Source: an uncultured Candidatus Saccharibacteria bacterium
Lineage (GTDB): Bacteria; Patescibacteriota; Minisyncoccia; Phycocordibacterales; UBA5272
DNA length: 64,000 nucleotides
Assembly (NCBI GenBank): GCA_964621595.1
Contig: CAZUPO010000001.1
Span: 14,758-78,757, forward strand
Direction of reading: 5' to 3'
Within the stretch, counting starts at the first letter, position 1. Each line of letters begins with the position of its first letter. Under the pieces are notes generated by a model that worked only from the letters and a program-made list of their open reading frames with translations, ran no database searches and was not told the DNA's origin. The position numbers and the translations under genes were made by a program. Below are positions 2,493-51,433 of this stretch, piece by piece.

Positions 2493-2498
2493 AACCCC

Positions 2499-2533
2499 CT
2501 ACCCATTCTGCTTTTTCCATTTGTAGAGTGTTG
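2499..2533. repeat. Direct repeat copy 1 (32/35 nt identical to 3201-3235), immediately upstream of GC-rich cassette A
   Basis: ctacccattctgctttttccatttgtagagtgttg versus ctacccattctgctttctccattcgtagagtgtta. Confidence 0.7.
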
Positions 2534-2552
2534 TATATTTAATTTAAGCAAA

Positions 2553-2581
2553 TTGACCTACTGTTTTTAAACTGATAGTGT
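2553..2581 (+). promoter_or_regulatory. sigma70-like promoter TTGACC-17-TAGTGT for cassette A
   Basis: Hexamer spacing 17 nt; followed by AAGGAAAGGG RBS and ATG at 2630. Confidence 0.5.
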
Positions 2582-2629
2582 GTTACGAGCAGGTTCCCAA
2601 ATTGCAGCACACTAAGGAAAGGGCGGCAC

Positions 2630-3145
2630 ATGATAAGAAACATCGTAACCGGGGATATCACCGATCCGATGATCAATCCCGGCGACATCATCATCGGCAT
2701 GAACTCGAAACTCACACAGGCTTCCGCGATCGGGAGGCCGTTCGTACGCAACGTGGAGGTGATCAAGCAGATCGATCTCGGATCGGTGCTCACTTTCAAC
2801 TTCGAGCCGGGGCGCTTGCTCCACATGCTCATCTGCCACAAGATCGGCAAGGGTGGTTGGGCGTCGGCAGACAAGTTCGTGCGCTTCTGCCTGGACTACC
2901 TGTGGAAGGAACACGGGCGTCGGCAATACGGAGTCGTCCAGATCGGAACTGGTTCCATCGGCAAGCGTGACGGCGCCGACTCGGCCGCCATCAGGACGGC
3001 GATGACCACCAGCTTCCTCGAGATGGATCTCTTCATCAGACCCGAGGAAGAGGAGGCGGCGACACGGGTTACACAAACCCCGCTCGTCCCCTTCCGCACC
3101 TGGAGCATGGACAAGGGTGAACGCGAGATCCGCGTCCATCACTGA
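2630..3145 (+). CDS. Macro-domain-like protein (ADP-ribose-binding fold); GC-rich cassette A
   Basis: High GC in an AT-rich context. N-terminal VTGDITD...DIIIGMNSKL...AIGR and a later G-rich IGTGSIGK loop resemble Macro-domain motifs (V.GDIT / hhhNAAN..L / G.G.yG), but the NAAN motif is degenerate (GMNS). Confidence 0.45.
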   Translation: MIRNIVTGDITDPMINPGDIIIGMNSKLTQASAIGRPFVRNVEVIKQIDLGSVLTFNFEPGRLLHMLICHKIGKGGWASADKFVRFCLDYLWKEHGRRQYGVVQIGTGSIGKRDGADSAAIRTAMTTSFLEMDLFIRPEEEEAATRVTQTPLVPFRTWSMDKGEREIRVHH

Positions 3146-3162
3146 AACGAAGGCATGTCCAG

Positions 3163-3196
3163 AAGGCCCCCGTCCGAAAGGAAGGGGGCCTTTTGA
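3163..3196 (+). terminator. Intrinsic terminator (AAGGCCCCC / GGGGGCCTT stem followed by a T-run)
   Basis: GC-rich hairpin followed by TTTTG, directly after the cassette A stop. Confidence 0.7.
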
Positions 3197-3200
3197 AATA

Positions 3201-3235
3201 CTACCCATTCTGCTTTCTCCATTCGTAGAGTGTTA
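3201..3235. repeat. Direct repeat copy 2 (native 3' end of rlmB)
   Basis: Overlaps the rlmB stop codon and last codons; pairs with 2499-2533. Confidence 0.7.
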
Positions 3236-3947
3236 CAGCAATTGCATTAGACGCGTTCAGCGACTCACATAAGCCGTTAATAGGTATCGAGAGTTTGAAA
3301 TCACAATGTTCAAGAGTTTTGTGTGCTATCCCCTGACCTTCACTGCCAACGACTATAACAGTATTTTCATCAAAAACAGTCTCTGTTAGACGTGAATCAC
3401 CTCCCCCCGTTAAGCCGTATACCCAGAAACCTTTTTCTTTAAGAGATAAAAGGGTGTTGTTAACATTACTCACTGAAATTATTGGTATAGAAAAAATGGC
3501 ACCAGAGGATGCTTTGGCAACGACACTCGTTATTTGTGCCTGATTATGTTCTGGCATAATAACTGCATCAACACCAAAGGCCAGACAACTTCTCATGATT
3601 GCACCGACGTTGTGCGGATCTTCAAGATGATCTAGAACAACAATGATCTTTTTACCTTCCTTTTCTTCTGCTAAAACCTCGGGAAGAGTCTGATACAAAC
3701 TACCCCCATCGATCAATACCGCCACCCCCTGATGAACAGCACCCCTCCCAACATGATGTTCCAATTCTTCTTCTGTAACAATGCTGTACGTGAGACGATT
3801 AGACTGAATTGTACTCATGATGAAAGAGTCTTTTTCCCCAGCTCGTGTGAGATACACTTTTTGAATAGGAACACGGGCACCTCGTACACGCGCTTTAAAT
3901 AATTCTTCGACCGTATTTTTACCGTAGATATATAATCCCTGTGACAT
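3201..3947 (-). CDS. rlmB: 23S rRNA (guanosine-2'-O)-methyltransferase RlmB / SpoU-TrmH family
   Basis: N-terminal L30e-like substrate domain plus C-terminal SPOUT motifs (VVLDHLEDPHNVGAIMRS, VYGLTGGG, ESLNASNA). Confidence 0.85.
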   Translation of the reverse strand: MSQGLYIYGKNTVEELFKARVRGARVPIQKVYLTRAGEKDSFIMSTIQSNRLTYSIVTEEELEHHVGRGAVHQGVAVLIDGGSLYQTLPEVLAEEKEGKKIIVVLDHLEDPHNVGAIMRSCLAFGVDAVIMPEHNQAQITSVVAKASSGAIFSIPIISVSNVNNTLLSLKEKGFWVYGLTGGGDSRLTETVFDENTVIVVGSEGQGIAHKTLEHCDFKLSIPINGLCESLNASNAIAVTLYEWRKQNG

Positions 3948-4004
3948 ACTAGACAGTATAGCACAAATATTGTGATATAAAAATGCGGGACCTTTACTAC
4001 TATC

Positions 4005-4541
4005 CTATTTTTGTTTTAGATCTGTAAAGGTAACATCTTTTGGCAGATCAAAAGTTTCTTCTGTATATAACCAATCTTCGCATGAGTAATCACCCACCGT
4101 TTCCGCATTCCAAGAATACATGCGGGGCGTATCGGTTGCTGTTTCAGTATTTGAGACAGTTTTTGTCTTGTAACCCACACCCTTCATAAGCGGTGTCCAT
4201 GTATAGGTGTATCCATCACGAACAATGATATCTGTATCGATTGTTTTGTTGACAATAGAGGTTGTAAAATGGCCCTTCACCCTGTCCTTGTGTATAAACA
4301 CGTCTCCGGTTACAACATTTGCTCCAAGATTTTGAGATACATGGCAATGATACGTTCCCCCTTGTGCAAGAAGTTCTGTGAATGGAATTTTTTTAGTACT
4401 TGTAGATACGATGTCTTGTTCTTGGGTGGTTACTGTCGTTGATGGAATAACTTGGTCTTCTTTGTGACTCATGTAGTACACACCTATGAAAATGCTCCCA
4501 AGCACGATTACTGAGAAAACAAGTTTACCAAGTAACGTCAT
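4005..4541 (-). CDS. Hypothetical membrane-anchored protein
   Basis: N-terminal TM helix; AT-rich; followed by the giant surface-protein gene on the same strand. Confidence 0.55.
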   Translation of the reverse strand: MTLLGKLVFSVIVLGSIFIGVYYMSHKEDQVIPSTTVTTQEQDIVSTSTKKIPFTELLAQGGTYHCHVSQNLGANVVTGDVFIHKDRVKGHFTTSIVNKTIDTDIIVRDGYTYTWTPLMKGVGYKTKTVSNTETATDTPRMYSWNAETVGDYSCEDWLYTEETFDLPKDVTFTDLKQK

Positions 4542-4563
4542 AATAAGACTAGTATACCACGCG

Positions 4564-7500
4564 CTATTTAACGGTGACAGAATCGCGTACTACATAAGTA
4601 CCACGACAAGTGAGTGTATATGTTTTTCCGGTGACACTACTATAGAGACCGACATCTTCTGATCCAGTAGTATTCTTACCATTAGACCACGCGCCACTTG
4701 CCATACAAGACTTTAGATTCTCACCAGTCCAGGACAGAATAACTCTTCGTTTTCCATCTACCATTTTTGTGGAGTAGTTTAATGTAACAGCAGGATTCTT
4801 GTTTGTGTCTTTTGTTAACACAGTCTCAACAGCAGAAGAAATTGATTTTACCGGTGAGGCAATTGCGCCAAGTGCTTTATCTTTTAGAGCAGTGGCGGCA
4901 CGAACACCGTAATTCTTTGTGTCAAAACGAATTTCGCGAGATATCTCCCCGCCTGGTCCTCCACAGGTTAGTTTGAATCCTTGGGTTCCACCAACCTTAT
5001 CGACAGCATATGAACCTGATGTTTCCTGTGCACCGGACCATGAACCTGACGCCTTACACCAAAGTGCGTTCGTCGTTTCCCAGAGGAGTGACACTGGCTT
5101 TCCATATTGAATGATGTGAGGAGTTGCTACAAAGGAAAGTGTTGGCGGTGGAGAGTCTGAGAAATTAACCTCAACAAAACTTGAGATAGATCCCCCGTCG
5201 CCGGTACACGAGAGTACATAGTTTTTACTTCCTGTTATTGGTTGCGTAGTAAAGGTACCCGCAACATTCTTTACACCGTCCCAATCACCAGAAGCATCAC
5301 AAGATGAAACGTTTTCCGCTTTCCAAACAAGAGTAATTGGTTTATTTGGCGTAATCTTACTCTCCTGCATAGAGAATCGTAATTTTGGCTGTGGGGGCGG
5401 GTTCGTAGAAACAACCTCACGTCTAGGAGATCTAATTGTTTGAATAACAATGACTGGTTGCTCAGCGTTTATTGTTATAGGTAATGGTACAGATGGATCA
5501 CGATCGGGTATCACATTTTGTTGAGTAATTGTTTGTCGTACAGTCTCCAATATCTGAGGCACCGCAACTGTCTGTTCTTGTGCTACCGTTGCAACCGAAG
5601 TTGTATTCGAAACCGCTTCTCCTGAGGTAGTAACTGCGGCTGTAGAGAAAGTTTCTGCTGGTACAACCTGTGGAGCAACTGAAATACCGACCGATTGAGT
5701 TATTTCGCCTCCATCACCTGTACACGTAAGAAGATATGATTTGTCACTGGTGAGTGAATTTACTTGCTGTTCTCCTGCAAGACCTCTATTTACCGTCACC
5801 CAATCACCCCCAGAACTATAACACTCTGTTGCATTTCTTGCCCTCCATGAAAGAGTTGCTGTGCCACCATAAGAAACCGCATTCTCAGATGAACTAAAAG
5901 TAAGCGTCGGTGGTACTTTTCTAATTATTTCTACAGCCGTTACAGCTGGTGCCTGGTTTACAGTAATAATAGCTGACTGACTAGCCTTTCCACCGGGGCC
6001 CGTGCATTCAATTGTATATGTTGTATTTGCGCGCGGAGACACTGTTTGTGTATCAGATGTCGATGTTTTATCTGTCCATGGAGCACTACACGCCGTTGTG
6101 TTAGTGGAAGACCACGTGAGTATACTAGATTGCCCTTCAGTAATAGTTGTCTGTGATGAATCCAAACTCACTTGTGGTAATGGTTTAGTTTCTGCAACTA
6201 CCTGTGGAGCAGAAACAGTTACGGTAATTGCCTGCTCACCCCTTCCCCCTTCTCCAGTACACGAAATTCTATACGTGGTAGTTGTAGATGGCGAAACTGT
6301 CTCTGATCCAGATATAGCCGAATTATTTCCCCATGATGACGTACACGTCGTCGCGTTAGTAGAACTCCAAGATAACCTTGTGCTTTGCCCTTGGGTAAGG
6401 GTCGAGGGAGACGCATCGAGTGTGACCGTTGCTGGTTGAGCAACTTGGACTACCGGGGCTGGACCTACAGCGATATTTACAGAATCTCGTGCTTCTCCAC
6501 CAACTCCTGAACAAGTAATTGTAAATACAGAACTTTCAGTAAGTGGAGGTGTTGTAAAAGAGGAAACAGTGGCAACTGGACCCGTTCTCCATGAACCTGT
6601 ACATGAATCCGCGGCTGTGGAAGACCAGTTAAGCACCGTTGCTGTGTTGTATGTTAGATTATTTGATCTTGAAGTCAATGAAACTGTTGGTACAGGTGGA
6701 GGCGGTGCCACAGTGATGGTGATAGATTTTTTTGTTTCTTGTCCGGCAGCATTATAACAACTAATAGTGAATCTTTTATCTTGGACCAATCTAGGAAGAT
6801 CTTCTTGGCCCGATAGTGACTTATTACCAGACCAATCGTCACTTGCTACACATCGTGTAGCGTTCCCGGAGGACCAATACAGGGTTGCTGGTGAATTATA
6901 TGGGAGACTATTTCCCGAAGAAGAAAAATCTATTGTTGCTACTGGCGTTGTACATGTGCTTGCAGTATTCACCCAACTCCCCCAGACAGGCTGACCATAT
7001 GAATCGGGACATGTACTCGTGCGCGTCTGGGTTACAGTACCATTCTGACCCGTTGGACATGAGATGGTCTGCTGTTCTGAAGATGTTCTACATGTGGGAG
7101 TTGGGGTAACGCATGTGTTTGTAGTATTCACCCAACCGCCCCAGACAGGCTGACCGTATGGATCAGGGCATGTACTCGTACGTGTCTGTGTTATAGAGCC
7201 TGTTTGCCCAGTTGGACAAGACACAGTCTGGTTTTCTGACGATGTCCTGCACGTGGGAGTTGCTGGTGCGTCGTTCATGGTCACAAACGCAGACTCTTCT
7301 GGTAACCATGTCCCCACAGGATTTACGTTATAACAACTAAGCACAAAGAATGGTTTTGTAAACGTACTTTTTGCAGGAAGATTTCTAATGACTTCTGTTC
7401 CACTTACTGGTTTGTACCCGGAAGACCATAATCCAACTGGGACACTTCTTCCGTAACAACTATTCCCCTGAAAGACACCAACATTTTTTGCATCCCAAGA

Positions 7501-8400
7501 AAGAGTAACGCTACCACCAGCGTCTGCTGTAGTCGGGGTAACAGAGATACTAATAGTTGGTGTACCTGCTGTTGCTGTAAGACTAGTATCAGCCGCCGCC
7601 GTAGTGGTAACAGGAACTTGTGAAGGAAAATAATTTTCAACATCTGCATAACTTGGCTGTAAATCTCCGTTATAACAAGTAACCCTAAGAGTAAACGATG
7701 CTATTCCGTAATATGCAGGTACGGTTGATAGAACTTTGGACCCAGTACCACACTGACTACTGGTACATAAATAGCCAAGACCTGCTGGCACACCAGGTCT
7801 TCCTAAAGTACAGTAGAGTGCATTTGTTGTGTTCCAGTTTATTGTTGTTTTTACCCCATCTTGATTGGGTAAACTTGGAAACAAGTTGGGGACACTAGTA
7901 TATGTCTTGGAAAGCGTCACCGTTGCTGCTGGACCTGATGCGGGCGGACTAGAGACTGTTTGAGTACCGAAGTAATTTGTTGCTGTGGTAATTGTTCTCA
8001 CTTTGACATTCTGTTGTTGCCCTGTCATTGCCCAAAAGATCACCTTGTACGAAGAAGCACTACCTATTTGAAACGTTGTTGAATACGTATTTCCACTACG
8101 CCACACCGTCCTCTGAACACCAGAATCAAGTAACGCTTGGGGATTATTAAAATTTGGATTATCGGAATCAAAGATACTGAAATACCCAACATCTGGCGGA
8201 AGTTGCGCAGAAGTGTCCACACTCACCGTTATCGTTGAACCAGGAGCAGCAGATGTTGGTGTAGGAGACACGAAGTTAAATGGCACTGTTCCGGTCTGGA
8301 GTGGAGAGAGGGTAACACCTTGTGCATTAACAAGAAAACAAGAGGAGAATATTCCTAGAAATATCCCTACAAAAAGACTTCTGCGTATGTGCTGTGACAT
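4564..8400 (-). CDS. Giant secreted/cell-surface protein (1278 aa), Thr/Ser-rich with Cys-containing Ig-like repeats
   Basis: Signal peptide (…FLVNAQG). Repeated L.WSS.NA..C modules. Two tandem 53-aa Cys-rich repeats (TPTCRTSSE.QT.SCPTGQ…) encoded by ~159-bp tandem DNA repeats near 6955-7275. Confidence 0.8.
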   Translation of the reverse strand: MSQHIRRSLFVGIFLGIFSSCFLVNAQGVTLSPLQTGTVPFNFVSPTPTSAAPGSTITVSVDTSAQLPPDVGYFSIFDSDNPNFNNPQALLDSGVQRTVWRSGNTYSTTFQIGSASSYKVIFWAMTGQQQNVKVRTITTATNYFGTQTVSSPPASGPAATVTLSKTYTSVPNLFPSLPNQDGVKTTINWNTTNALYCTLGRPGVPAGLGYLCTSSQCGTGSKVLSTVPAYYGIASFTLRVTCYNGDLQPSYADVENYFPSQVPVTTTAAADTSLTATAGTPTISISVTPTTADAGGSVTLSWDAKNVGVFQGNSCYGRSVPVGLWSSGYKPVSGTEVIRNLPAKSTFTKPFFVLSCYNVNPVGTWLPEESAFVTMNDAPATPTCRTSSENQTVSCPTGQTGSITQTRTSTCPDPYGQPVWGGWVNTTNTCVTPTPTCRTSSEQQTISCPTGQNGTVTQTRTSTCPDSYGQPVWGSWVNTASTCTTPVATIDFSSSGNSLPYNSPATLYWSSGNATRCVASDDWSGNKSLSGQEDLPRLVQDKRFTISCYNAAGQETKKSITITVAPPPPVPTVSLTSRSNNLTYNTATVLNWSSTAADSCTGSWRTGPVATVSSFTTPPLTESSVFTITCSGVGGEARDSVNIAVGPAPVVQVAQPATVTLDASPSTLTQGQSTRLSWSSTNATTCTSSWGNNSAISGSETVSPSTTTTYRISCTGEGGRGEQAITVTVSAPQVVAETKPLPQVSLDSSQTTITEGQSSILTWSSTNTTACSAPWTDKTSTSDTQTVSPRANTTYTIECTGPGGKASQSAIITVNQAPAVTAVEIIRKVPPTLTFSSSENAVSYGGTATLSWRARNATECYSSGGDWVTVNRGLAGEQQVNSLTSDKSYLLTCTGDGGEITQSVGISVAPQVVPAETFSTAAVTTSGEAVSNTTSVATVAQEQTVAVPQILETVRQTITQQNVIPDRDPSVPLPITINAEQPVIVIQTIRSPRREVVSTNPPPQPKLRFSMQESKITPNKPITLVWKAENVSSCDASGDWDGVKNVAGTFTTQPITGSKNYVLSCTGDGGSISSFVEVNFSDSPPPTLSFVATPHIIQYGKPVSLLWETTNALWCKASGSWSGAQETSGSYAVDKVGGTQGFKLTCGGPGGEISREIRFDTKNYGVRAATALKDKALGAIASPVKSISSAVETVLTKDTNKNPAVTLNYSTKMVDGKRRVILSWTGENLKSCMASGAWSNGKNTTGSEDVGLYSSVTGKTYTLTCRGTYVVRDSVTVK

Positions 8401-8453
8401 AAATATACCTTACTGCGAAGTATATCGGGTCTTTAGTATACGGTAAACCCTCC

Positions 8454-9593
8454 TTATGCACGCACGTCATCGTACGGCACAAATGTGCAACTCACTTTCT
8501 TCCCCTTGTATTCCCGTACAATAACTTCTAGTTCTGCAGCAACATCTTTTTCAGTAGTTAGTTTTTCATTTTTTAAAAAACCATACTGCACACTACCAGA
8601 CTCTGTTTTTATAGTTATCACCCCACGTTGTTTCATAGTAACAATAGACTTTAGAAGACCTTTTTCAGTATCGGAGGTTTGCAATGAATCAATAATTGAA
8701 AAACAAGAATCGACGGAACGTTCGTAACGATACAGAGCATTCATCCAATCAAGGACTCTGTCGACGGGTAACCCACCCTGCAGAACCTTCTTCAATCGGC
8801 CTTGAAAATCTCTTTGGTATTTATCACTAAAGAGATTATGCACATTGTTTCCTGATAAAGCAGCATCAAATGCTTGTGCCACTTGACTATATACCATCTT
8901 GTGATCGTGAACAAATGAATCTAATTCGTCAACTTGTTGACTGTATTGCACCTCTTCATTCTCATCAGGAACATTTGCTTCGCTCTCTTGCTCAGTACTA
9001 GGGGTAGCAATTTTTCTTATTACAATAGACTTAAGGGCAGAGTCTTCTTTTAAACATACATGAATAACATCTCGCAATTCTTTCACGAATTCCTTTTTCA
9101 TTTTAAGTCTGTTGGTGGTCAGGAGAACAACGGGTAATGAAAAAATTCTTGTTGTTCCGTCAGCAAAAGTTGCTTTAATATTTGAAGAAATTGGGGTTTT
9201 AACAAGGTTAATAAGCGCTTCCTTCTCTTCATTTCTTACATTGAGAAAAGCAATCTCTCCTACTAACCCCTGATAACTCGAAACTTCTACCCGTTCAATT
9301 TTTTTGAGAAGTTCCTCCAACGTCTCTCGTTGTACACCGTGTTCAATCGCCGCTTTAATTTCTTGTATACAATTCTGTAAACGTTTATCTAAAGAAGTTA
9401 TCTTTGCATCAGTGTCTTCGGCGATATGCAGTGCGAGAGAAAATTCTTCCGACGATACGTCATGCTGCCATACGAACGTTTCGAGTGCTCGCATTTTTTC
9501 TTTTTCGTTATTGTGAGTTAGTTTCTCTGGTGGTCCTTCTCTGTCCATATAGTTCTTAGAAAAGATTGTACTAGTAAACGAAAATTTCTCCAA
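8454..9593 (-). CDS. Hypothetical protein
   Basis: Long AT-rich ORF, acidic and coiled-coil-like; no recognisable motif. Confidence 0.55.
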   Translation of the reverse strand: MEKFSFTSTIFSKNYMDREGPPEKLTHNNEKEKMRALETFVWQHDVSSEEFSLALHIAEDTDAKITSLDKRLQNCIQEIKAAIEHGVQRETLEELLKKIERVEVSSYQGLVGEIAFLNVRNEEKEALINLVKTPISSNIKATFADGTTRIFSLPVVLLTTNRLKMKKEFVKELRDVIHVCLKEDSALKSIVIRKIATPSTEQESEANVPDENEEVQYSQQVDELDSFVHDHKMVYSQVAQAFDAALSGNNVHNLFSDKYQRDFQGRLKKVLQGGLPVDRVLDWMNALYRYERSVDSCFSIIDSLQTSDTEKGLLKSIVTMKQRGVITIKTESGSVQYGFLKNEKLTTEKDVAAELEVIVREYKGKKVSCTFVPYDDVRA

Positions 9594-17026: not shown

Positions 17027-17050
17027 TACCAAAAGTACTCTAGAACTAAC

Positions 17051-17089
17051 AAAAATACCGCCAGTTGACCTGGTGGTATTTTTGTTTTT
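17051..17089. terminator. Bidirectional intrinsic terminator between rpmA (+) and rplI (-)
   Basis: A-run, then ATACCGCCAG / CTGGTGGTAT hairpin, then T-run. Confidence 0.6.
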
Positions 17090-23575: not shown

Positions 23576-23940
23576 ATCTGGAGAACCACGAGACGAGGGA
23601 CCTGCGCACGTAACGCAGTGCATAGACTTCGCAAAGGAATCGACCTGACGGACAACTCTCGTGAAGCCGATCCCTACGCCTTAATCTCGTGGCCTCCAGA
23701 CAAATATAAGTATATACCACCAGAAAACGAAAACCCCCTCACATGAGGCATGTACAATGGGGGCGCAGGCCGGGGATGGACGACGAGGTTAAGGAGAACC
23801 CTTTCACACAGGAGACGGGCGCCTCCGCAAAGGCCCTAGGTAGGATGCCGCGGGCAGGGATGTGCCTTCGGCAATCCCTCCTGTCACCTCGTCGTCCTCC
23901 CGGCAATACCTATAGTATCACAAACTTCTATAACCAGAAA
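23576..23940. ncRNA. GC-rich ORF-free structured region between recR and rplU; candidate ncRNA(s), strand and class unresolved
   Basis: No RBS-led ORF. Terminator hairpin at the low-coordinate end (23555-23575, T-run on the minus strand) and a bidirectional terminator at 23944-23975. 12-bp long-range stem GGACGACGAGGT / ACCTCGTCGTCC (23790-23907). An AT-rich promoter-like patch at 23697-23730 may split it into two RNAs. Confidence 0.25.
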
Positions 23941-23943
23941 AAC

Positions 23944-23975
23944 AAAAACGACCCCTGGGGTCGTTTTTGTTTTTC
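23944..23975. terminator. Bidirectional intrinsic terminator (A-run, AACGACC…GGTCGTT, T-run)
   Basis: Symmetric A and T tracts flank a GC stem; lies downstream of rplU (-) and of the GC-rich region (+). Confidence 0.7.
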
Positions 23976-23988
23976 TTACAAATCGAGA

Positions 23989-40695: not shown

Positions 40696-41061
40696 CTAGG
40701 GCTGGACGGTCGTCGCCTTGAAGAGGTCGAATTCGTCGTCACCCAGCGGGTTGTTGTAGTCCGGCATGAAGTCCATGTCGCGACGCGCATCCACGGAACT
40801 ATCGTGAGTGCGGAAGTCGCAGTCGTCACCGAAGGTGATGCCGGGATCACCGTTGGCGGCAGCCCCTTCGCAGATGTGCCGCTGGAGTTCCTCCGCCTTG
40901 GGAGTCATGACGCGGAGCACCTTCATGCCACCCATCCGACCACGCTGCACCTTGGTGATGCCGAAACCCGTGGCCGTGTTCCTCAGGTACTTGATGAGCC
41001 GCTCCACCTCCACGGAGGTGTCGTAGCCGGTGTAGACATCCAAGCAGTACGATTCTTGCAA
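40696..41061 (-). CDS. Hypothetical protein J, GC-rich cassette (probable TTG start)
   Basis: AAGGAG RBS 7 nt before TTG at 41061, where GC rises; the alternative ATG at 41121 lacks an RBS. Confidence 0.4.
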   Translation of the reverse strand: MQESYCLDVYTGYDTSVEVERLIKYLRNTATGFGITKVQRGRMGGMKVLRVMTPKAEELQRHICEGAAANGDPGITFGDDCDFRTHDSSVDARRDMDFMPDYNNPLGDDEFDLFKATTVQP

Positions 41062-41184
41062 GGCAATTCTCCTTTTCAAAATTACTCTATTAAGGGAAGG
41101 GTTGTACCCGTCTTGTAACATACTACAATATGAAAATAATTCTGTCTAGTTGCTGGTCGAATCGAACTAAAAATTCTTGGAACA

Positions 41185-41474
41185 AAATTGGATGTATTAT
41201 ACATTCCTCTAATCTTCAGATTTACTATCAAACTCCGTCTGCATTCTGGTCATCCATGCGTTTTTATTTTCACCAGTTCTGGCTTCCATACTCATAATAC
41301 TAGCCGTGTGTGCTTCATCAGATGTCATGTGAGGCATTCCTTTCTGGATAACTTCCATAAAAGTATCTCCAGAAAATTTCTCGTCGCAAGTTCCTCCCAA
41401 TTCTCGACATGTAAATGTTTTGCTCATATGAATTGAGTATACCATTTTTTCTGCGCTATTTTTGTGTGTTGCTG
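41185..41474. repeat. 290-bp direct repeat R1a (100% identical to 44141-44430) carrying a DUF1059 gene
   Basis: Identical ORF translations at +2956 offset; nucleotide-level identity over 290 bp. Confidence 0.9.
41209..41427 (-). CDS. DUF1059-family small protein (copy 1)
   Basis: MSKTFTCRELGGTCDEKFSG…H…H fits the DUF1059 C..G.CD pattern; the plus-strand 82-aa ORF is antisense noise. Confidence 0.6.
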   Translation of the reverse strand: MSKTFTCRELGGTCDEKFSGDTFMEVIQKGMPHMTSDEAHTASIMSMEARTGENKNAWMTRMQTEFDSKSED

Positions 41475-41580: not shown

Positions 41581-42996
41581 TTACTTATAGTTGTTTCTTT
41601 TGTGTTCAATATAATCAACGAGCAATTCATAAAATAAACTCTCGTCTCTAACATCTTCTGCCTTTACAAAAGAATTTTCAAAAGTATCCCATTCAATTAG
41701 ATATTTTTTCCAATAGAATGATTTTTCTGGTCTTTCTGGTTTTAGCGATTTAAGCATAGCCGTTATATAAGGCTTGAACGGCATTCTCTCTTGTGTTCTT
41801 CGTGGTGATTCTTTGATGATAGAAATGACTTTTAGGAAGCCTTTTATGTCTGTAAAGCTTAATATTGCGACCCGGATAGCAATATTAAAATACATTTCAA
41901 ATTCATCAGTTCTCAAGTTTTGAATATTAAATCCACCCTTTTTTAACTCTAGGAATTGAAACCGAGTAGGCTTAAGCAACCCTCGAAGTGTCAACGCCTG
42001 ACTTTCAACTGCACGAACAAAAATATGTTCAAGAAACAATTTAATATATCCTCCCTCCCCAATAGCACTTATCATTTGAGGATTTTCATTTTTTATACTT
42101 TTAACTATTTCTTCAACAGTATCTACCACAGCTTGCTGGTTATCGAAGCGATACGGAGCAATAGTAAAAAACTTATTCACGTAACCTGAAAAGTCCGTCT
42201 CAACGCCATACTTGTGATGAAATATGTGCTCAAGATTTGCGTAATCTGCGACAACGATTATGATATCGAACCCAAACCTATTCTCATTTTCTCGTTCAAA
42301 AAAGGCAGAGAGGAGATTTAGCACCCTAAATATATGCTCTGGATCTACCCTGTCTAAATCATCCAAAATAAGAACACTTTTCTTTATGCCTTTTTGTTGT
42401 GAAATTTTTTCTTTTACCAGATTGCTAACATAATCCGGCTCAGTAATATTCTTAGATTTTATTTCAGCAGTATATTTTTCTATTAGGCCTTTATCACCTG
42501 CCTTATATTCTGTCTTAAACTCCTGAAAATCCTTATCGAGATCTAGTAAGTCTTTCAACGGTCTGCCTAATTTTGCTAAAACACTGGTTATTGGATCGGC
42601 AGACAACGAGGCAACATCTTCACCTCCTGAAATAATTTTCTGAAGAACATCGTTTACTGTATATCTATCTTTTATCCACGACCAAAATAGTAGAGACGAT
42701 TCTTTGATCCCGTTCACAGATTTTTCTTCAAAAATATCTTTATTCTTTTTTAGAAGCTCGATAATGACATCGTATTTAAGGAGACCCACAATATCATCAT
42801 TAGCACTAATTTGATAGTTTATTGGATACAAATGAAAGGCTTCATATGAATCATGATTTTCTTTGAAAAACTCATTGAGAAAATGTGTCTTTCCTGCACC
42901 AAACTTACCTGAAAATAGAATTCGAGAATTTTCTTCCATTGAAAGAAACTCACTGAAATCTTTCTTTGCGGTATCAATTGGTATTTTAATAGCCAT
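41581..42996 (-). CDS. KAP-family P-loop NTPase
   Basis: Walker A GKFGAGKTHFL and the KAP-specific Walker B VLILDDLDRVDP; 471 aa. Confidence 0.75.
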   Translation of the reverse strand: MAIKIPIDTAKKDFSEFLSMEENSRILFSGKFGAGKTHFLNEFFKENHDSYEAFHLYPINYQISANDDIVGLLKYDVIIELLKKNKDIFEEKSVNGIKESSLLFWSWIKDRYTVNDVLQKIISGGEDVASLSADPITSVLAKLGRPLKDLLDLDKDFQEFKTEYKAGDKGLIEKYTAEIKSKNITEPDYVSNLVKEKISQQKGIKKSVLILDDLDRVDPEHIFRVLNLLSAFFERENENRFGFDIIIVVADYANLEHIFHHKYGVETDFSGYVNKFFTIAPYRFDNQQAVVDTVEEIVKSIKNENPQMISAIGEGGYIKLFLEHIFVRAVESQALTLRGLLKPTRFQFLELKKGGFNIQNLRTDEFEMYFNIAIRVAILSFTDIKGFLKVISIIKESPRRTQERMPFKPYITAMLKSLKPERPEKSFYWKKYLIEWDTFENSFVKAEDVRDESLFYELLVDYIEHKRNNYK

Positions 42997-43060: not shown

Positions 43061-43251
43061 GCTGGGGTACAAGGACTCGGTCACGAAGTCTATTTTTAGA
43101 TTACAAAAAATATAAGACTTCTCGACCCCGTATTCGAGTCCTTGCCGAAAGTGACGCAGGTCACTTTCTTACCCCATCAAAGCGTAAGTTTAAAGAATGC
43201 TACGCATACAGTATATAATTCGCTTTGCTGGGGTACAAGGACTCGAACCTC
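43061..43251. repeat. 191-bp direct repeat R2a (copy of 46597-46786) containing two tRNA-Gln 3'-end fragments
   Basis: tRNA 3'-end copies at 43059-43080 and 43227-43252; internal 9-bp perfect hairpin GAAAGTGAC-GCAG-GTCACTTTC. Confidence 0.85.
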
Positions 43252-43381
43252 TTCGGATGCCAGGAACTCAGCTCAAGTTGGGTTGATATGGACAAAGTAT
43301 AAAAAATATTGTAGTGTACTTTTTAGCGGGTCACTCTTCCCCAACCAATTAAGAGGATCATTCCACCTATGAGGAGGCTCT

Positions 43382-43981
43382 ATGCCCGCACTCGATCGAC
43401 AAGAAGGATACTTGGTAGCGCACGAAACCCTGCTGGCCGAACTCAAGGCCATGTGGGCAGATCCCAAGGTCCAGCTCTACAACGATGCGGAGCTTCCCGC
43501 GTTCAGCGATACCGCCGTGTTCCTGGCCGGGCCGACGTCGCGCAACCAGATCCTGGAATGCCAGTGGCGTGCCAAAGCGGTCGCGTTTCTGCGCAAATAC
43601 GGCTTCGAAGGATGGATCTACTGCCCGGAACCGCGGGGATTCGAAGCTCCCGGCGATTTCACCGAACGGGGCTACATCCACCGCTGGGAATCCAGTCGGC
43701 TCTTCACGCCCACCACGTGTGCTGAGTACGCCGTGTTCTGGATCCCGCGCAAGGCCGACGAACTGCTCGGGCTCAACACGAACCTCGAGCTCGGCATCAT
43801 GATCGGCAAGTGCATGATGCGAAACGATTACGAGCGGAGGAAGCTCTTCGTCGGTTGGCCGGACAGCGCGGAGCGCATGGGACTCCCGAACCATTACATG
43901 GGCGAGATCGTCCTCGAGCGGTACACCGCGCTTGACACAATCTGCGCCGACCTGGCCGCATCCGTCAGGAATCGCCGTTAG
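43382..43981 (+). CDS. Nucleoside 2-deoxyribosyltransferase / DNPH1(Rcl)-like protein, GC-rich cassette K
   Basis: AVFLAGPTSRN (cf. YFCGSIRGG) and NTNLELGIMIGK (cf. S.GVGYELG, catalytic Glu); RBS AGGAGG. Confidence 0.5.
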   Translation: MPALDRQEGYLVAHETLLAELKAMWADPKVQLYNDAELPAFSDTAVFLAGPTSRNQILECQWRAKAVAFLRKYGFEGWIYCPEPRGFEAPGDFTERGYIHRWESSRLFTPTTCAEYAVFWIPRKADELLGLNTNLELGIMIGKCMMRNDYERRKLFVGWPDSAERMGLPNHYMGEIVLERYTALDTICADLAASVRNRR

Positions 43982-44001
43982 GATCTCTTCACGAGGTCCG
44001 G

Positions 44002-44030
44002 AAGCCACCTTCGGGTGGCTTTTTTCTTTC
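44002..44030 (+). terminator. Intrinsic terminator (GCCACC-TTCG-GGTGGC followed by TTTTTTCTTTC)
   Basis: UUCG tetraloop hairpin plus T-run. Confidence 0.75.
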
Positions 44031-44140
44031 ATAAAATAAGTTAAAAGTTCGAGTGCCCTAAGAGGGTCAATAAAACTACATTTTTTGTTCACACAAAACC
44101 CTTATGAATTCAGTGCAACTTGGACGCTAGAACCTAGCTC

Positions 44141-44430
44141 AAATTGGATGTATTATACATTCCTCTAATCTTCAGATTTACTATCAAACTCCGTCTGCAT
44201 TCTGGTCATCCATGCGTTTTTATTTTCACCAGTTCTGGCTTCCATACTCATAATACTAGCCGTGTGTGCTTCATCAGATGTCATGTGAGGCATTCCTTTC
44301 TGGATAACTTCCATAAAAGTATCTCCAGAAAATTTCTCGTCGCAAGTTCCTCCCAATTCTCGACATGTAAATGTTTTGCTCATATGAATTGAGTATACCA
44401 TTTTTTCTGCGCTATTTTTGTGTGTTGCTG
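44141..44430. repeat. 290-bp direct repeat R1b (identical to 41185-41474)
   Basis: See R1a. Confidence 0.9.
44165..44383 (-). CDS. DUF1059-family small protein (copy 2, identical)
   Basis: Identical to copy 1. Confidence 0.6.
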   Translation of the reverse strand: MSKTFTCRELGGTCDEKFSGDTFMEVIQKGMPHMTSDEAHTASIMSMEARTGENKNAWMTRMQTEFDSKSED

Positions 44431-44506
44431 GGAGTTGGGTGGGAAGTTGAAACTTTTTTGTTTGTAAATGGGGTATAATTCAATTATATATATTAATTAT
44501 AAAAAA

Positions 44507-45121
44507 ATGAAAAAAACACTTGTTTTTGTCTTTTGTTTCTTGCTAACACAATCAGTTTTTGCTCTAACTCTAACTCCACCAAGAATTGAACTCACACTAA
44601 GTAGGGGTGAGAGCGCCTCAAGTGAACTTGTTGTAATAAATGAAGAACTTCCAAACAATACACCAGATAAAACTTATTATATTTCTGTTGAAAAACTCAA
44701 TAACAAGAAGTCAGGAATATCTTTTACATCAGGTGACTATAGTAATTTAGTTAAAGTGCCCGAGAAGATTACAATTAGGAACGGGGCAACTGTAAAAATA
44801 CCATTCTTAGTCACTCTTCCAGACGACGCTATCCAAACATACAATTTTACGATATTTTTGAGTACTTATAAACCCGAAGATGAAGGGGAAGTTGTTGGAG
44901 CAAAAGTGGGTTCTTTTCTTTTGATTCATGTGCCAAATGGTTACACAGAATCAGCGGTAGTTACTCAACCTGTAAAAGTAAATTTAGTTAAGAAAGCTCC
45001 TGCAATAACCCTAGTAAGTACCAGCACAAAAGAACAACCTGTTTCTGGTTCAGTAAGAAGTTTTAGGGATAAATTTATGAATTGGATTATCTCTTTTAAA
45101 AACATTTGGGTTAATAATTAA
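44507..45121 (+). CDS. Hypothetical secreted protein
   Basis: Signal peptide MKKTLVFVFCFLLTQSVFA; start taken at the MKKT codon. Confidence 0.55.
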   Translation: MKKTLVFVFCFLLTQSVFALTLTPPRIELTLSRGESASSELVVINEELPNNTPDKTYYISVEKLNNKKSGISFTSGDYSNLVKVPEKITIRNGATVKIPFLVTLPDDAIQTYNFTIFLSTYKPEDEGEVVGAKVGSFLLIHVPNGYTESAVVTQPVKVNLVKKAPAITLVSTSTKEQPVSGSVRSFRDKFMNWIISFKNIWVNN

Positions 45122-45241
45122 TACTTTATTAAATTAGTTATTTTGTTTCTGATCTCATCGGATTCGGATATTTCCATACCTTACCCAGCAAACTTTTATA
45201 AGCATTTTCAGTTGTACTATTTTAATGCACTTCGGAACAAC

Positions 45242-45679
45242 CTAATTCCACCTGAGGAGGTATAGGAAACCTCCAATAATTACCCCTGCTACAACAGCAA
45301 GAAAAACTATTCCAAATGGTTTTTCATACCAATTTTTCGGATGTCGTTTTTCATTTTTTTGATTTTCGAACTTTATAAGAGTGCCGTCACCAACTATAGT
45401 GTTATCTTTAATTACCCCGCTGAAATAATTGTGATTTTCCTGACTGTGGCTACTCACACTATTACCAGTTCTACTTTTTACCGAAAGCCTTTCATATAAA
45501 AGTTTTCTTTTGTATTCGGTATCAGCAATATCTTTTTTAATTAAATAGATATCTCTACCTCTCCAACGATATGATTCTTCACTAGCATTCTTCTCTTCAC
45601 GTAATTGAATTAGCCTAGAATCAAGAAGCTCTAGTTGTTGTTCTTCGGGGAGTCCTCTTCTCCAAAAATAATTGTCCAT
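45242..45679 (-). CDS. Hypothetical protein with a C-terminal TM anchor
   Basis: AT-rich ORF; C-terminal hydrophobic helix. Confidence 0.5.
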   Translation of the reverse strand: MDNYFWRRGLPEEQQLELLDSRLIQLREEKNASEESYRWRGRDIYLIKKDIADTEYKRKLLYERLSVKSRTGNSVSSHSQENHNYFSGVIKDNTIVGDGTLIKFENQKNEKRHPKNWYEKPFGIVFLAVVAGVIIGGFLYLLRWN

Positions 45680-45711
45680 AGTTATGTTGTATTTAACTTC
45701 TCCTACACATT

Positions 45712-46554
45712 TTATTTTTCTGAAATTTCTTCTATCGCCTCGCGTGTGGTTTTTATTTGTTTACCATTTGGTAATGTTAGAATTGTCTCAATCCGAGCGA
45801 GCAACTCTGTTGGTTCCTGTCTATTATCCTCAACTCGAATCTCTCCTGTTTTACCATCAATAATCAAATGGGCTTTTTCACTAGTACCATCCCTTTTTCC
45901 TATTAAAAGATGTTGATCCTCGCCTTGGGAACGGGACTCAACGAAAAGACCTTCTGTCTCAAGTCGTTTCTTGATTGTTTTTTCAGCTTCATGCTGAGAA
46001 AGTAAATCGAGATAAGGTTGAAATGAGGGCCAGGCGGCCGGGTACGGATATCCGTCCTCAGTAGACCACCAAATTTGTCTTACAGTTTGAAGTTTTCTAA
46101 ATCGTAATCCAGGTAAGCTGTCTGGAGATAAGGTGACTTTTAAATGCTCAATTAATCCTTCGTGTAAAACCTGAACCTCGCTTGTAGTCAGCAAGTTTTC
46201 TTTTATAGCCGTTTCCTTTGCCCAAATTTCTTTTAAAACAGATTTATCTGTTTTTTCTGAACTAACAACAATGGGCAGAGATTCTTTTACTTCAGAAAGA
46301 AGGCCGTTTAAGATACGCTTTCTATTGTCTAATTCTTTGAGGTATTGAGAGCGATTAAAACTCGGATCAATATAAGAAGTTGTCATAGTCCTCTGTTGTT
46401 TAAAAAGATTTAAACCATCCCCTCCAAAAATCTGTCTTACAAGTTTTTCTGTAGACTGTTCCCATATTTGGTATTCCGGTCCCCAATTTTCAATACCTCT
46501 TAATGTATCAATTTTTGAGATTTGTTCTTTTAATTTTGAAAGGTTTTCATCCAT
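45712..46554 (-). CDS. Hypothetical protein (280 aa)
   Basis: AT-rich ORF; no motif recognised. Confidence 0.5.
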   Translation of the reverse strand: MDENLSKLKEQISKIDTLRGIENWGPEYQIWEQSTEKLVRQIFGGDGLNLFKQQRTMTTSYIDPSFNRSQYLKELDNRKRILNGLLSEVKESLPIVVSSEKTDKSVLKEIWAKETAIKENLLTTSEVQVLHEGLIEHLKVTLSPDSLPGLRFRKLQTVRQIWWSTEDGYPYPAAWPSFQPYLDLLSQHEAEKTIKKRLETEGLFVESRSQGEDQHLLIGKRDGTSEKAHLIIDGKTGEIRVEDNRQEPTELLARIETILTLPNGKQIKTTREAIEEISEK

Positions 46555-46596
46555 ATAGCTTTAATGTTTTAATACTCTTCGAACTCGCTCAACGTG

Positions 46597-46786
46597 GCTG
46601 GGGTACAAGACTCGGTCACGAAGTCTATTTTTAGATTACAAAAAATATAAGACTTCTCGACCCCGTATTCGAGTCCTTGCCGAAAGTGACGCAGGTCACT
46701 TTCTTACCCCATCAAAGCGTAAGTTTAAAGAATGCTACGCATACAGTATATAATTCGCTTTGCTGGGGTACAAGGACTCGAACCTC
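46597..46786. repeat. 190-bp direct repeat R2b; its last 24-26 nt are the genuine 3' end of tRNA-Gln
   Basis: Differs from R2a by a single G deletion in the first tRNA-fragment copy. Confidence 0.85.
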
Positions 46787-46833
46787 GATACTCAGGACCA
46801 AAACCTGATGTCCTACCATTAGACGATACCCCA
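46763..46833 (-). tRNA. tRNA-Gln (anticodon UUG)
   Basis: The reverse complement gives TGGGGTATCGTCTAATGGTAGGACATCAGGTTTTGGTCCTGAGTATCGAGGTTCGAGTCCTTGTACCCCAG: 7-bp acceptor, TTTTGGT anticodon loop, GGTTCGAGTCC T-loop; close to E. coli tRNA-Gln. Confidence 0.85.
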
Positions 46834-50823: not shown

Positions 50824-50890
50824 GGTGATTATTATTGTATGAGTATGGTGTAAGCGTACCACTTAGGCTAGAGTGGTGTCAAAATGACAT

Positions 50891-50915
50891 AGGAAAAGCC
50901 GCGCGTGGGCGCGGC
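50891..50915 (-). terminator. Intrinsic terminator for L1 (GCCGCGC-GTGG-GCGCGGC, T-run on the minus strand)
   Basis: Sits inside a 46-bp segment identical to 51382-51427. Confidence 0.65.
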
Positions 50916-50938
50916 GTCTTCCAACCAGCGGGTGATGA

Positions 50939-51283
50939 TCATTGCTGCGGGCGCGGTGGACCGATGAAGGGACTCCACTTCAACACCCCGCCGAAGGGCT
51001 CCTCCTCGCGAGCGACAACTTCAGTGCGTTCGAGGTCTTCGAGAACCTTCAGCACCTCTTCGTCGGTACATGGGCTGTAGCCCCATTCCATCAACTGACG
51101 ACCGATAGCGACGACTATCTGCCCGGTGCGCAAGGGCCCACCTTGCTCGAGGACCTCATACCTGACCATTCGGGCGAGTATCCCTAAACGCCGCTTCCCC
51201 TGCTCACGGATCCTGAGAATCTCGACCCCTCCGTAGAGAAGGGCTATGAACAGAACGGGCCAGAAATCCTGGATGACTTGCAT
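50939..51283 (-). CDS. Small membrane-anchored protein L1 (N-terminal TM plus C-terminal wHTH-like), GC-rich
   Basis: Promoter TTGACT-17-TAGTAT; 5'UTR motif TATTCCAA; RBS GGAGGAGG. Confidence 0.5.
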   Translation of the reverse strand: MQVIQDFWPVLFIALLYGGVEILRIREQGKRRLGILARMVRYEVLEQGGPLRTGQIVVAIGRQLMEWGYSPCTDEEVLKVLEDLERTEVVAREEEPFGGVLKWSPFIGPPRPQQ

Positions 51284-51384
51284 GACACACCTCCTCCAAT
51301 TGGAATATATTCATACTAGAATAGAGGTGAGGCGAAGTCAAATACTTTCAAATAATTTAGATAGTATAAAAATAAAATTACCAT

Positions 51385-51409
51385 AGGAAAAGCCGCGCGT
51401 GGGCGCGGC
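51385..51409 (-). terminator. Intrinsic terminator for L2 (identical to the L1 terminator)
   Basis: Same hairpin within the 46-bp perfect repeat. Confidence 0.65.
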
Positions 51410-51433
51410 GTCTTCCAACCAGCGGGTAAAGGG

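Follow-up and report, generated by a model that had tools for sequence, protein, structure and literature searches.

A soluble KAP-family NTPase, a candidate defence protein, at a strain-variable tRNA-Gln recombination hotspot of an uncultured Candidatus Saccharibacteria bacterium

An anti-phage role of KAP-family P-loop NTPases has been shown experimentally only recently. PifA, which is encoded by the F plasmid and excludes phage T7, is a single-gene defence whose KAP NTPase has no transmembrane helices, so that such helices are not universal among KAP proteins (PMC13001434). EF_KAP has two transmembrane helices and consists of a KAP NTPase domain followed by a 322-amino-acid (aa) C-terminal region of no recognisable fold; it is linked to small serine recombinases, and its defence requires both Walker B and the C-terminal region. 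Tmn, a YobI-family protein, is likewise a P-loop NTPase defence; its Walker B bears a D...R signature, and two transmembrane helices are inserted in its P-loop domain. It assembles into a membrane decamer, and ATP turnover contributes to its effect. Here we describe a KAP-family gene found on 64,000 nucleotides (nt) of DNA, referred to below as the window, from an uncultured Candidatus Saccharibacteria bacterium (assembly GCA_964621595.1, contig CAZUPO010000001.1). The gene encodes a soluble protein that is a candidate for single-gene defence and lies at a recombination hotspot next to a tRNA-Gln gene.

Two further groups of systems bear on the comparison. PrrC, TgvAB and the ‘guilt by embedding’ candidates of PADLOC sit inside hsdM/hsdS/hsdR operons of type I restriction-modification (R-M) systems, and genes embedded in such operons are often defence genes, either independent ones or ones that guard the R-M system (10.1101/2024.01.29.577857; PMC11411939). 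BrxC of BREX and RdrA of RADAR are defence ATPases of AAA+/STAND-like type. The gene studied here and the parts of its product referred to below are located in the window as follows.

41581–42996, minus strand: gene for a KAP-family P-loop NTPase of the soluble subfamily, an open reading frame (ORF) of 471 aa matching PF07693
42886–42909, minus strand: Walker A, GKFGAGKT, residues 30–37
42340–42372, minus strand: Walker B region, LILDDLDRVDP, residues 209–219
41584–42144, minus strand: C-terminal alpha/beta domain, residues 285–471, a candidate sensor or effector region

An earlier note on this DNA, made from its letters alone, had recognised the 471-aa ORF and both Walker motifs, which are present as it described, and had assigned the protein to the KAP family. 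The assignment held in a Pfam profile search, where KAP_NTPase (PF07693) covers residues 20–279 with 51.7 bits (cutoff 20, E = 1e-13), while AAA_22, NPHP3_N and YobI-ATPase (PF20693; 20.5 bits, cutoff 27) all fell under their own Pfam cutoffs. The protein carries the hallmarks of the family as drawn from Pfam and later papers: a match to the family hidden Markov model, a Walker A of the form GxxxxGK[ST] and a Walker B of the form hhhhDD followed by [DE]R. In an alignment of 42 homologues, G30, G33, G35 and K36 of Walker A are invariant, as are L209, L211, D212, D213, R216, D218, P219 and H221 in and next to Walker B. The KYD motif at residues 74–76 and an N-L-R motif at residues 336–338, which could be a sensor-2-like arginine, are highly conserved or invariant, and the protein retains every residue that is invariant in the family. 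The ratio of nonsynonymous to synonymous substitution rates (dN/dS) is about 0.08 against relatives at 66–76% amino-acid identity, with dS saturated, and the gene is therefore under purifying selection. On this sequence evidence we take the ORF to be a genuine, intact KAP-family ATPase with predicted nucleoside triphosphate (NTP) hydrolysis.

A Kyte-Doolittle analysis found no hydrophobic segment between Walker A and Walker B, and the protein is thus a soluble KAP without the transmembrane segments that most prokaryotic KAP proteins typically possess; the highest mean over 19 residues is 1.68, at residues 376–394, within a helix of the modelled C-terminal domain. The protein is laid out as an N-terminal NTPase, in which a helical insert of ~170 residues without transmembrane helices separates Walker A from Walker B, and an alpha/beta C-terminal domain of ~190 residues. 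The full-length AlphaFold2 model has a predicted local distance difference test (pLDDT) score of 76.8, with low confidence for segment 113–145 inside the insert. Foldseek comparison of this model with PDB gave weak AAA+/STAND-like matches, namely BrxC (E 2.6e-4, TM-score 0.37) and further HslU, ORC/Cdc6 and RdrA. The C-terminal 187 residues were modelled on their own (pLDDT 87.7, predicted TM-score 0.86) as helices with a small three-stranded sheet. Foldseek comparison of this second model with PDB and BFVD gave nothing significant (best E = 3 in PDB).

NCBIfam gave no meaningful match, PHROGs only a weak match to a family without assigned function, and a sequence search of PDB with the family profile only chance matches. 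The earlier note had suggested running defence-system predictors; PADLOC returned only a weak, partial match to the candidate PDC-S20 (28 bits, residues 157–303). All 42 aligned family members match PDC-S20 weakly (best E 6e-12), and it is probably a related but distinct family. The PADLOC model for PifA did not match the protein at E ≤ 0.01 and was matched weakly by four of the 42 members (best 2e-5); the Tmn model did not match it at all.

A word-indexed search returned more than 160 homologues, nearly all of 466–509 aa and nearly all with a precomputed PF07693 match. A profile search of 1.84 billion representatives of clusters formed at 50% identity gave 1,292 clusters at E ≤ 1e-30; loosening the limit to E ≤ 1e-3 raised the number only to 1,790, so that the search delimits a sharply bounded subfamily and not the whole KAP superfamily. 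The earlier description of KAP NTPases as rare was therefore overstated, since this subfamily alone amounts to ~1,300 such clusters. The subfamily (~475 aa) is patchily spread over Patescibacteria, DPANN and Bacteroidota; the few homologues with named sources are from Parcubacteria and a DPANN ‘ainarchaeum’. No family match was found in phages, and two of 72,556 plasmids carry the family, both of them large Prevotellaceae replicons. The relative on a Segatella plasmid lies near NACHT, DUF2971 and helicase genes.

We then examined the surroundings of relatives by calling ORFs and clustering the neighbours at 159 loci, 79 of them in species-representative genomes and 80 on metagenome contigs. 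Three neighbour clusters recurred, which Pfam identified as HsdM (N6_Mtase + HsdM_N), HsdS (Methylase_S) and HsdR (ResIII + EcoEI_R_C). Type I R-M genes stand at most four genes from the KAP gene at 18 of 79 genome loci and 19 of 80 metagenome loci (37/159 in total). When the count is restricted to the 33 full-length relatives for which four or more neighbours were called, 12 have type I R-M within four genes, and eight of the 33 adjoin an R-M gene directly. For a gene picked at random, such proximity to type I R-M would be expected in ~1% of cases or less. Against this baseline, the observed proximity of 23–36% would be a large enrichment. Domains of HsdS (10) and then HsdM (6) are the commonest among 120 immediate neighbours; rarer ones are RhuM, DUF559, Schlafen/AlbA_2, AAA_15 and a restriction endonuclease fold. 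The search for recurrent partners that the earlier note had called for thus yielded HsdM, HsdS and HsdR, and not the DUF1059 gene named there as a possible partner.

The order hsdM-KAP-hsdS occurs at eight loci (L004 on contig CAZTIC010000024.1, L006 on contig MWCM01000004.1, L010, L030, L094, L096, L097 and L169), including relatives at 42–56% identity. At the four genome loci among them the KAP gene is separated from the upstream gene by gaps of 1–6 nt and overlaps the downstream gene by 11–26 nt, which suggests co-translation. This spacing, together with the finding that R-M neighbours in the genome set always lie on the KAP strand where strand was recorded and with the lack of an effector domain in the KAP protein, speaks for the main rival to a defence function of its own: that the family serves type I R-M as a dedicated accessory subunit or as a regulator, for example as a guard that uses NTP to respond to anti-restriction proteins much as PrrC does, or as a factor in assembly or restriction alleviation, and that the copy in the window is a left-over orphan that does little or nothing by itself. 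The place of KAP in R-M operons is, however, variable (S-KAP and R-x-KAP occur besides M-KAP-S), and most relatives, including one at 76% identity, are solitary. The copy in the window is itself an orphan without nearby R-M genes: tblastn of the 64 kb found no HsdM, HsdS or HsdR homologue, yet the gene is intact and under purifying selection. We regard an accessory role as unlikely, though it deserves the most weight among the alternatives to defence.

Other relatives are found in different defence surroundings. The closest relative with context (83% identity; L172, positions 262–4350, JGI 3300037067) lies between an Abi_2 gene and a single antitoxin-type gene with HTH and SocA_Panacea domains; a frameshift divides it into two ORFs (125 and 361 aa). 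Three Bacteroidales loci (L033, L044 and L064; ~1–9400) share one conserved multi-gene cluster made up of an unannotated gene, a Schlafen/AlbA_2-HATPase_c_4-HTH gene, a gene for a PglX-like Eco57I/N6_Mtase/TaqI_C methyltransferase of ~1,150 aa, an SMC_N/AAA_15 ATPase gene and the KAP gene. This cluster may be a multi-gene defence system that includes the KAP NTPase. The expectation of the earlier note that homologues would be tied to defence contexts was thus borne out by type I R-M operons, by Abi_2/SocA surroundings and by Schlafen/PglX-like clusters.

Taking published precedent together with these neighbourhoods, we favour, with modest confidence, the reading that the gene encodes a single-gene anti-phage or anti-mobile-element defence NTPase. 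On this reading, the insert or the C-terminal region would sense an invader cue, and NTP binding and hydrolysis would switch the assembly state of the KAP protein. The output might be arrest of the infected cell or drain of its NTP; it might instead be control of a partner, which in many relatives would be the co-transcribed type I R-M complex.

Several observations weigh against this proposal. The PADLOC match is weak and partial at 28 bits, the protein shows no recognisable effector domain, and no obvious catalytic set stands out among its conserved C-terminal residues. No R-M or other known defence gene stands beside the KAP gene of the window, and type I R-M is absent within four genes in about two thirds of relatives with context. 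Some immediate neighbours of relatives are housekeeping genes, for example those for methylmalonyl-CoA mutase and alanyl-tRNA synthetase. This last observation and the missing effector domain would also fit a non-defence cellular NTPase, such as a regulatory or assembly ATPase of Patescibacteria, since many relatives lie amid housekeeping genes. Such a role agrees poorly with the patchy spread over Patescibacteria, DPANN and Bacteroidota, with presence/absence variation inside one population and atypical composition (both described below), and with the repeated embedding of relatives in R-M and defence clusters. We consider it quite improbable, and less likely than an R-M accessory role.

Among the described systems, the protein appears most like the single-gene KAP defences of PifA or EF_KAP type, while the genomic habit of its relatives resembles that of PrrC-type genes. 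With PifA it shares a KAP NTPase free of transmembrane helices; it differs in being chromosomal in Patescibacteria and not plasmid-borne, and in its length and C-terminal region. Like EF_KAP, it couples a KAP NTPase domain to a C-terminal region of no recognisable fold, but it is soluble, its C-terminal domain measures 190 aa and type I R-M is the main genomic association of its relatives. It lacks the transmembrane insert of Tmn. Unlike PrrC, it has no nuclease or other effector domain, shows no detected PrrC homology and is not itself embedded in R-M. In the fold search with the full-length model, BrxC and RdrA came out best or repeatedly, but the similarity is weak (TM-score 0.3–0.38, E ~1e-4 to 1e-2), and their partner genes are absent at the window.

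The KAP gene is bounded by members of two repeat families. The relevant features are these.

41185–41474: D1a, first copy of a 290-nt exact direct repeat, with a DUF1059-like ORF at 41209–41427 (minus strand)
44141–44430: D1b, second 290-nt copy, with a DUF1059-like ORF at 44165–44383 (minus strand)
43061–43251: D2a, a 191-nt repeat derived from tRNA-Gln, directly upstream of the KAP gene; it comprises a degenerate attachment (att) copy, a 140-nt spacer and an exact 25-nt att core at 43227–43251
46597–46786: D2b, second D2 copy, whose final 25 nt form the 3′ end of the real tRNA-Gln
46762–46833, minus strand: tRNA-Gln(ttg), anchor of the hotspot, called by ARAGORN and by the Rfam tRNA model (59.9 bits)

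Both the DUF1059-like D1 and the tRNA-derived D2 on either side of the gene, as reported in the earlier note, were confirmed. The DUF1059-like ORF scores 20.2 bits, just short of the Pfam cutoff of 21.1. The same note had proposed that the KAP and DUF1059 genes might form a two-gene functional module, and the two are indeed on the same strand, 153 nt apart, so that co-transcription is possible. Yet tblastn (E ≤ 0.01) found a DUF1059 homologue at none of 162 loci encoding KAP relatives, and we therefore rejected the module. The second, identical DUF1059 copy adjoins unrelated genes and diverges from them, and one sister contig (L083, described below) keeps DUF1059 without KAP. We give such a module almost no credence. 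Searched in the same way, the DUF1059-like, 199-aa and other local proteins matched only contigs of the window’s own population. An exact-DNA search of metagenome contigs with a 47-mer from D1 gave no match, although JGI contigs with D1 exist.

The two D2 copies are 99.5% identical. The 25-nt att core, GCTGGGGTACAAGGACTCGAACCTC, is the 3′ end of tRNA-Gln, and the tRNA 3′-end motif occurs in the window three times exactly and a fourth time lacking one base, where chance would give 0.02; these four are the only att-like copies in the 64 kb, and none is distal to KAP. Within D2 the 3′ half of tRNA-Gln is present twice in direct and once in inverted orientation, and the 3′ trailer of the real tRNA-Gln is therefore complementary to its own T-arm and acceptor strand. 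The repeat is strongly structured (minimum free energy –76.7 kcal/mol, RNA fold z = –7.5) and matches no Rfam family. Read in the orientation of the tRNA, the order is tRNA-Gln (att1), 140 nt, att2, the 280-aa, 145-aa and 217-aa genes, DUF1059 (D1b) and the 199-aa gene, which resembles nucleoside 2-deoxyribosyltransferase (NDT) genes; it continues with att3, 140 nt, att4, KAP, DUF1059 (D1a), the 141-aa gene and a GNAT gene. The window ORFs that were scanned include no recombinase. In the 76%-identical relative, which belongs to another lineage, the KAP gene starts 165 nt past the 3′ end of tRNA-Gln; relatives are close to tRNA genes only occasionally. An integron-like cassette array was also considered and set aside, as neither an integrase nor any attC-like repeat beyond D2 was found.

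Independent assemblies (JGI, Logan) cross D1a, D2a, D1b and D2b exactly as in the window, with contig L001 crossing the junction from KAP through D2 to the 199-aa gene. Since all four repeat junctions are reproduced, the arrangement is real and not a chimera. Other contigs depart from it in specific ways. In L083 (JGI 3300045354) the 217-aa gene is joined via a single D1 copy to the 141-aa gene and KAP is absent, the product expected if recombination between the D1 copies had deleted the 2,956 bp of KAP, D2 and the 199-aa gene. In three contigs from three JGI samples (L183, positions 1–1707, from JGI 3300045398 and with long flanks; L178; L179), the 280-aa gene is joined via D2 to the 199-aa gene, as expected if the 3,535-bp unit at 43252–46786 were circular or tandemly duplicated. 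This unit comprises D2, the 280-, 145- and 217-aa genes, DUF1059 and the 199-aa NDT-like gene; it has no recombinase and does not include KAP. In L185 (positions 1–4047; JGI 3300045356, Ga0490051_004784) a low-GC element replaces the sequence left of the 25-nt att core and encodes a 374-aa AAA_25 ATPase and a 591-aa large serine recombinase (Resolvase + Recombinase domains), while the 199-aa gene and D1 follow right of the core as in the window. Because this element ends exactly at the core, a recombinase-bearing integrative element uses the same att core in a sister population. We conclude that the KAP locus is a strain-variable tRNA-Gln recombination hotspot and that its repeats are recombinationally active.

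The simplest history would start with KAP as the gene next downstream of tRNA-Gln; insertion of the 3.5-kb unit between the two would then have duplicated D2, and recombination between the DUF1059 copies would now remove KAP in part of the population. A mirror-image model, in which a circle of D1, KAP, D2 and the 199-aa gene was inserted via D1 into a chromosome of the L083 type, fits the junction data equally well. Neither model is proven, because the contigs contain no junction from KAP through D1 to the 199-aa gene and none from KAP through D2 to the tRNA.

These data also bear on the proposal of the earlier note that KAP is cargo of a repeat-bounded unit, which in its explicit form would make the gene the cargo of a site-specific integrative element targeting the 3′ end of tRNA-Gln. 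The hotspot itself is real, with four copies of the tRNA-Gln 3′ end and the tRNA gene at one boundary; the large serine recombinase element of L185 abuts the same 25-nt core, KAP follows tRNA-Gln in the 76% relative too, its GC content is atypically low, and a variant without it exists. But an att copy is lacking beyond KAP and no recombinase was found in the window, so the cargo claim is only partly right. Moreover, recombination between the D1 copies explains the variant lacking KAP, the circle or tandem junctions belong to the neighbouring, KAP-free unit of 3,535 bp, and the family is nearly absent from plasmids and absent from phages. We regard the cargo reading as doubtful.

Two bolder readings can be set beside these. 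In the first, the soluble KAP subfamily would be a fourth part of type I R-M systems in Patescibacteria and Bacteroidota that has so far gone unnoticed: a sensor driven by NTP, coupled in translation to HsdM/HsdS and serving to guard or regulate restriction, while orphan copies like that of the window would act alone. In the second, D2, with its att-140 nt-att structure, would be the recombination site of small cassettes that lack a recombinase; the 3.5-kb unit would be one of them, and the large serine recombinase element would mobilise them in trans. We hold these readings to be clearly unlikely.

The genes around KAP to which the junctions refer are listed here.

43382–43981, plus strand: nucleoside 2-deoxyribosyltransferase-like gene, 199 aa, GC content at third codon positions (GC3) 79%, with its own terminator at 44000–44023
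44468–46554: three genes of the 3.5-kb unit, for a secreted protein of 217 aa (plus strand), a membrane-anchored protein of 145 aa (minus strand) and a protein of 280 aa (minus strand)
45712–46554, minus strand: gene for the 280-aa protein, without Pfam match
40696–41121, minus strand: 141-aa high-GC ORF, distal neighbour of D1a, GC3 78%, with junctions crossed in L083 and L085
2576–3300, 10726–11275, 14626–16025, 21876–22900, 23526–23975, 24376–24875, 25926–26275, 27101–27950, 33501–34225, 35451–36550, 40576–41150, 43251–44100, 50801–51350 and 51376–52250: high-GC stretches

The window is otherwise an ordinary bacterial chromosome with genes for DnaB, CysRS, an AddA-like helicase-nuclease, enolase, pyruvate kinase, RmuC, ABC transporters, VanY and an M32 carboxypeptidase. 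The named sources of some relatives of its proteins suggest a genome of Patescibacteria (Parcubacteria). Its housekeeping genes have a GC content of 40–45% and GC3 of 34–46%. The KAP gene has a GC content of 33.7% and GC3 of 28.6%, and the three genes at 44468–46554 are similar; the small genes flanking the KAP unit are at the opposite extreme, with GC3 of 78–79%. One of the latter, the 199-aa gene, belongs to the 2,956-bp segment lost along with KAP in L083. That it came from an actinobacterial host is unsupported, as its source-named homologues are from Patescibacteria, and the idea that the high-GC neighbours are assembly chimeras was rejected since independent contigs cross their junctions. 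The family of the 280-aa protein is well conserved, with ~90 clusters at 48–90% identity over full length, and its few named sources are Patescibacteria.

The high-GC genes next to KAP belong to a wider pattern of ~14 short high-GC stretches (0.3–1.4 kb, peaks of 53–66% GC) dotted over a chromosome of 43% GC. Most of these islets consist of one small ORF each, and none of the eight scanned passes a Pfam threshold; GC3 of 78–79% was measured in two islet genes, both next to KAP. A 171-aa islet gene (2630–3145, plus strand) lies between 34-nt direct repeats (2499–2532 and 3201–3234) that copy the 3′ end of the neighbouring gene at 3201–3947. Another, of 114 aa (50939–51283, minus strand), is placed between 54-nt direct repeats (50881–50933 and 51374–51427) that include a terminator hairpin. 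Such repeat-flanked islets look like insertion footprints; at eight other high-GC islet regions no flanking repeat of at least 16 nt was found. Elsewhere in the window, a 1,278-aa ORF (4564–8400, minus strand) without Pfam match contains an internal tandem duplication of ~150 nt (6953–7103 and 7112–7262, 81% identity), and perfect or near-perfect palindromes occur at 23936–23976 and 17048–17086.

Taken by itself, the single gene is an ordinary defence candidate, and the description of its subfamily, with a soluble KAP, a novel C-terminal fold and embedding in R-M operons, is useful but incremental. It nevertheless makes the soluble ~475-aa subfamily, common in Patescibacteria and Bacteroidota, a defined and testable candidate for defence. 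More unusual are the scattered high-GC single-gene islets and the dynamics of the tRNA-Gln hotspot. If the cassette reading of D2 is true, D2-based cassettes would constitute a cassette-exchange system in bacteria of the candidate phyla radiation (CPR). Across independent assemblies, the locus shows genes beside tRNA-Gln being gained and lost through repeats, a process still under way in an uncultivated CPR population.

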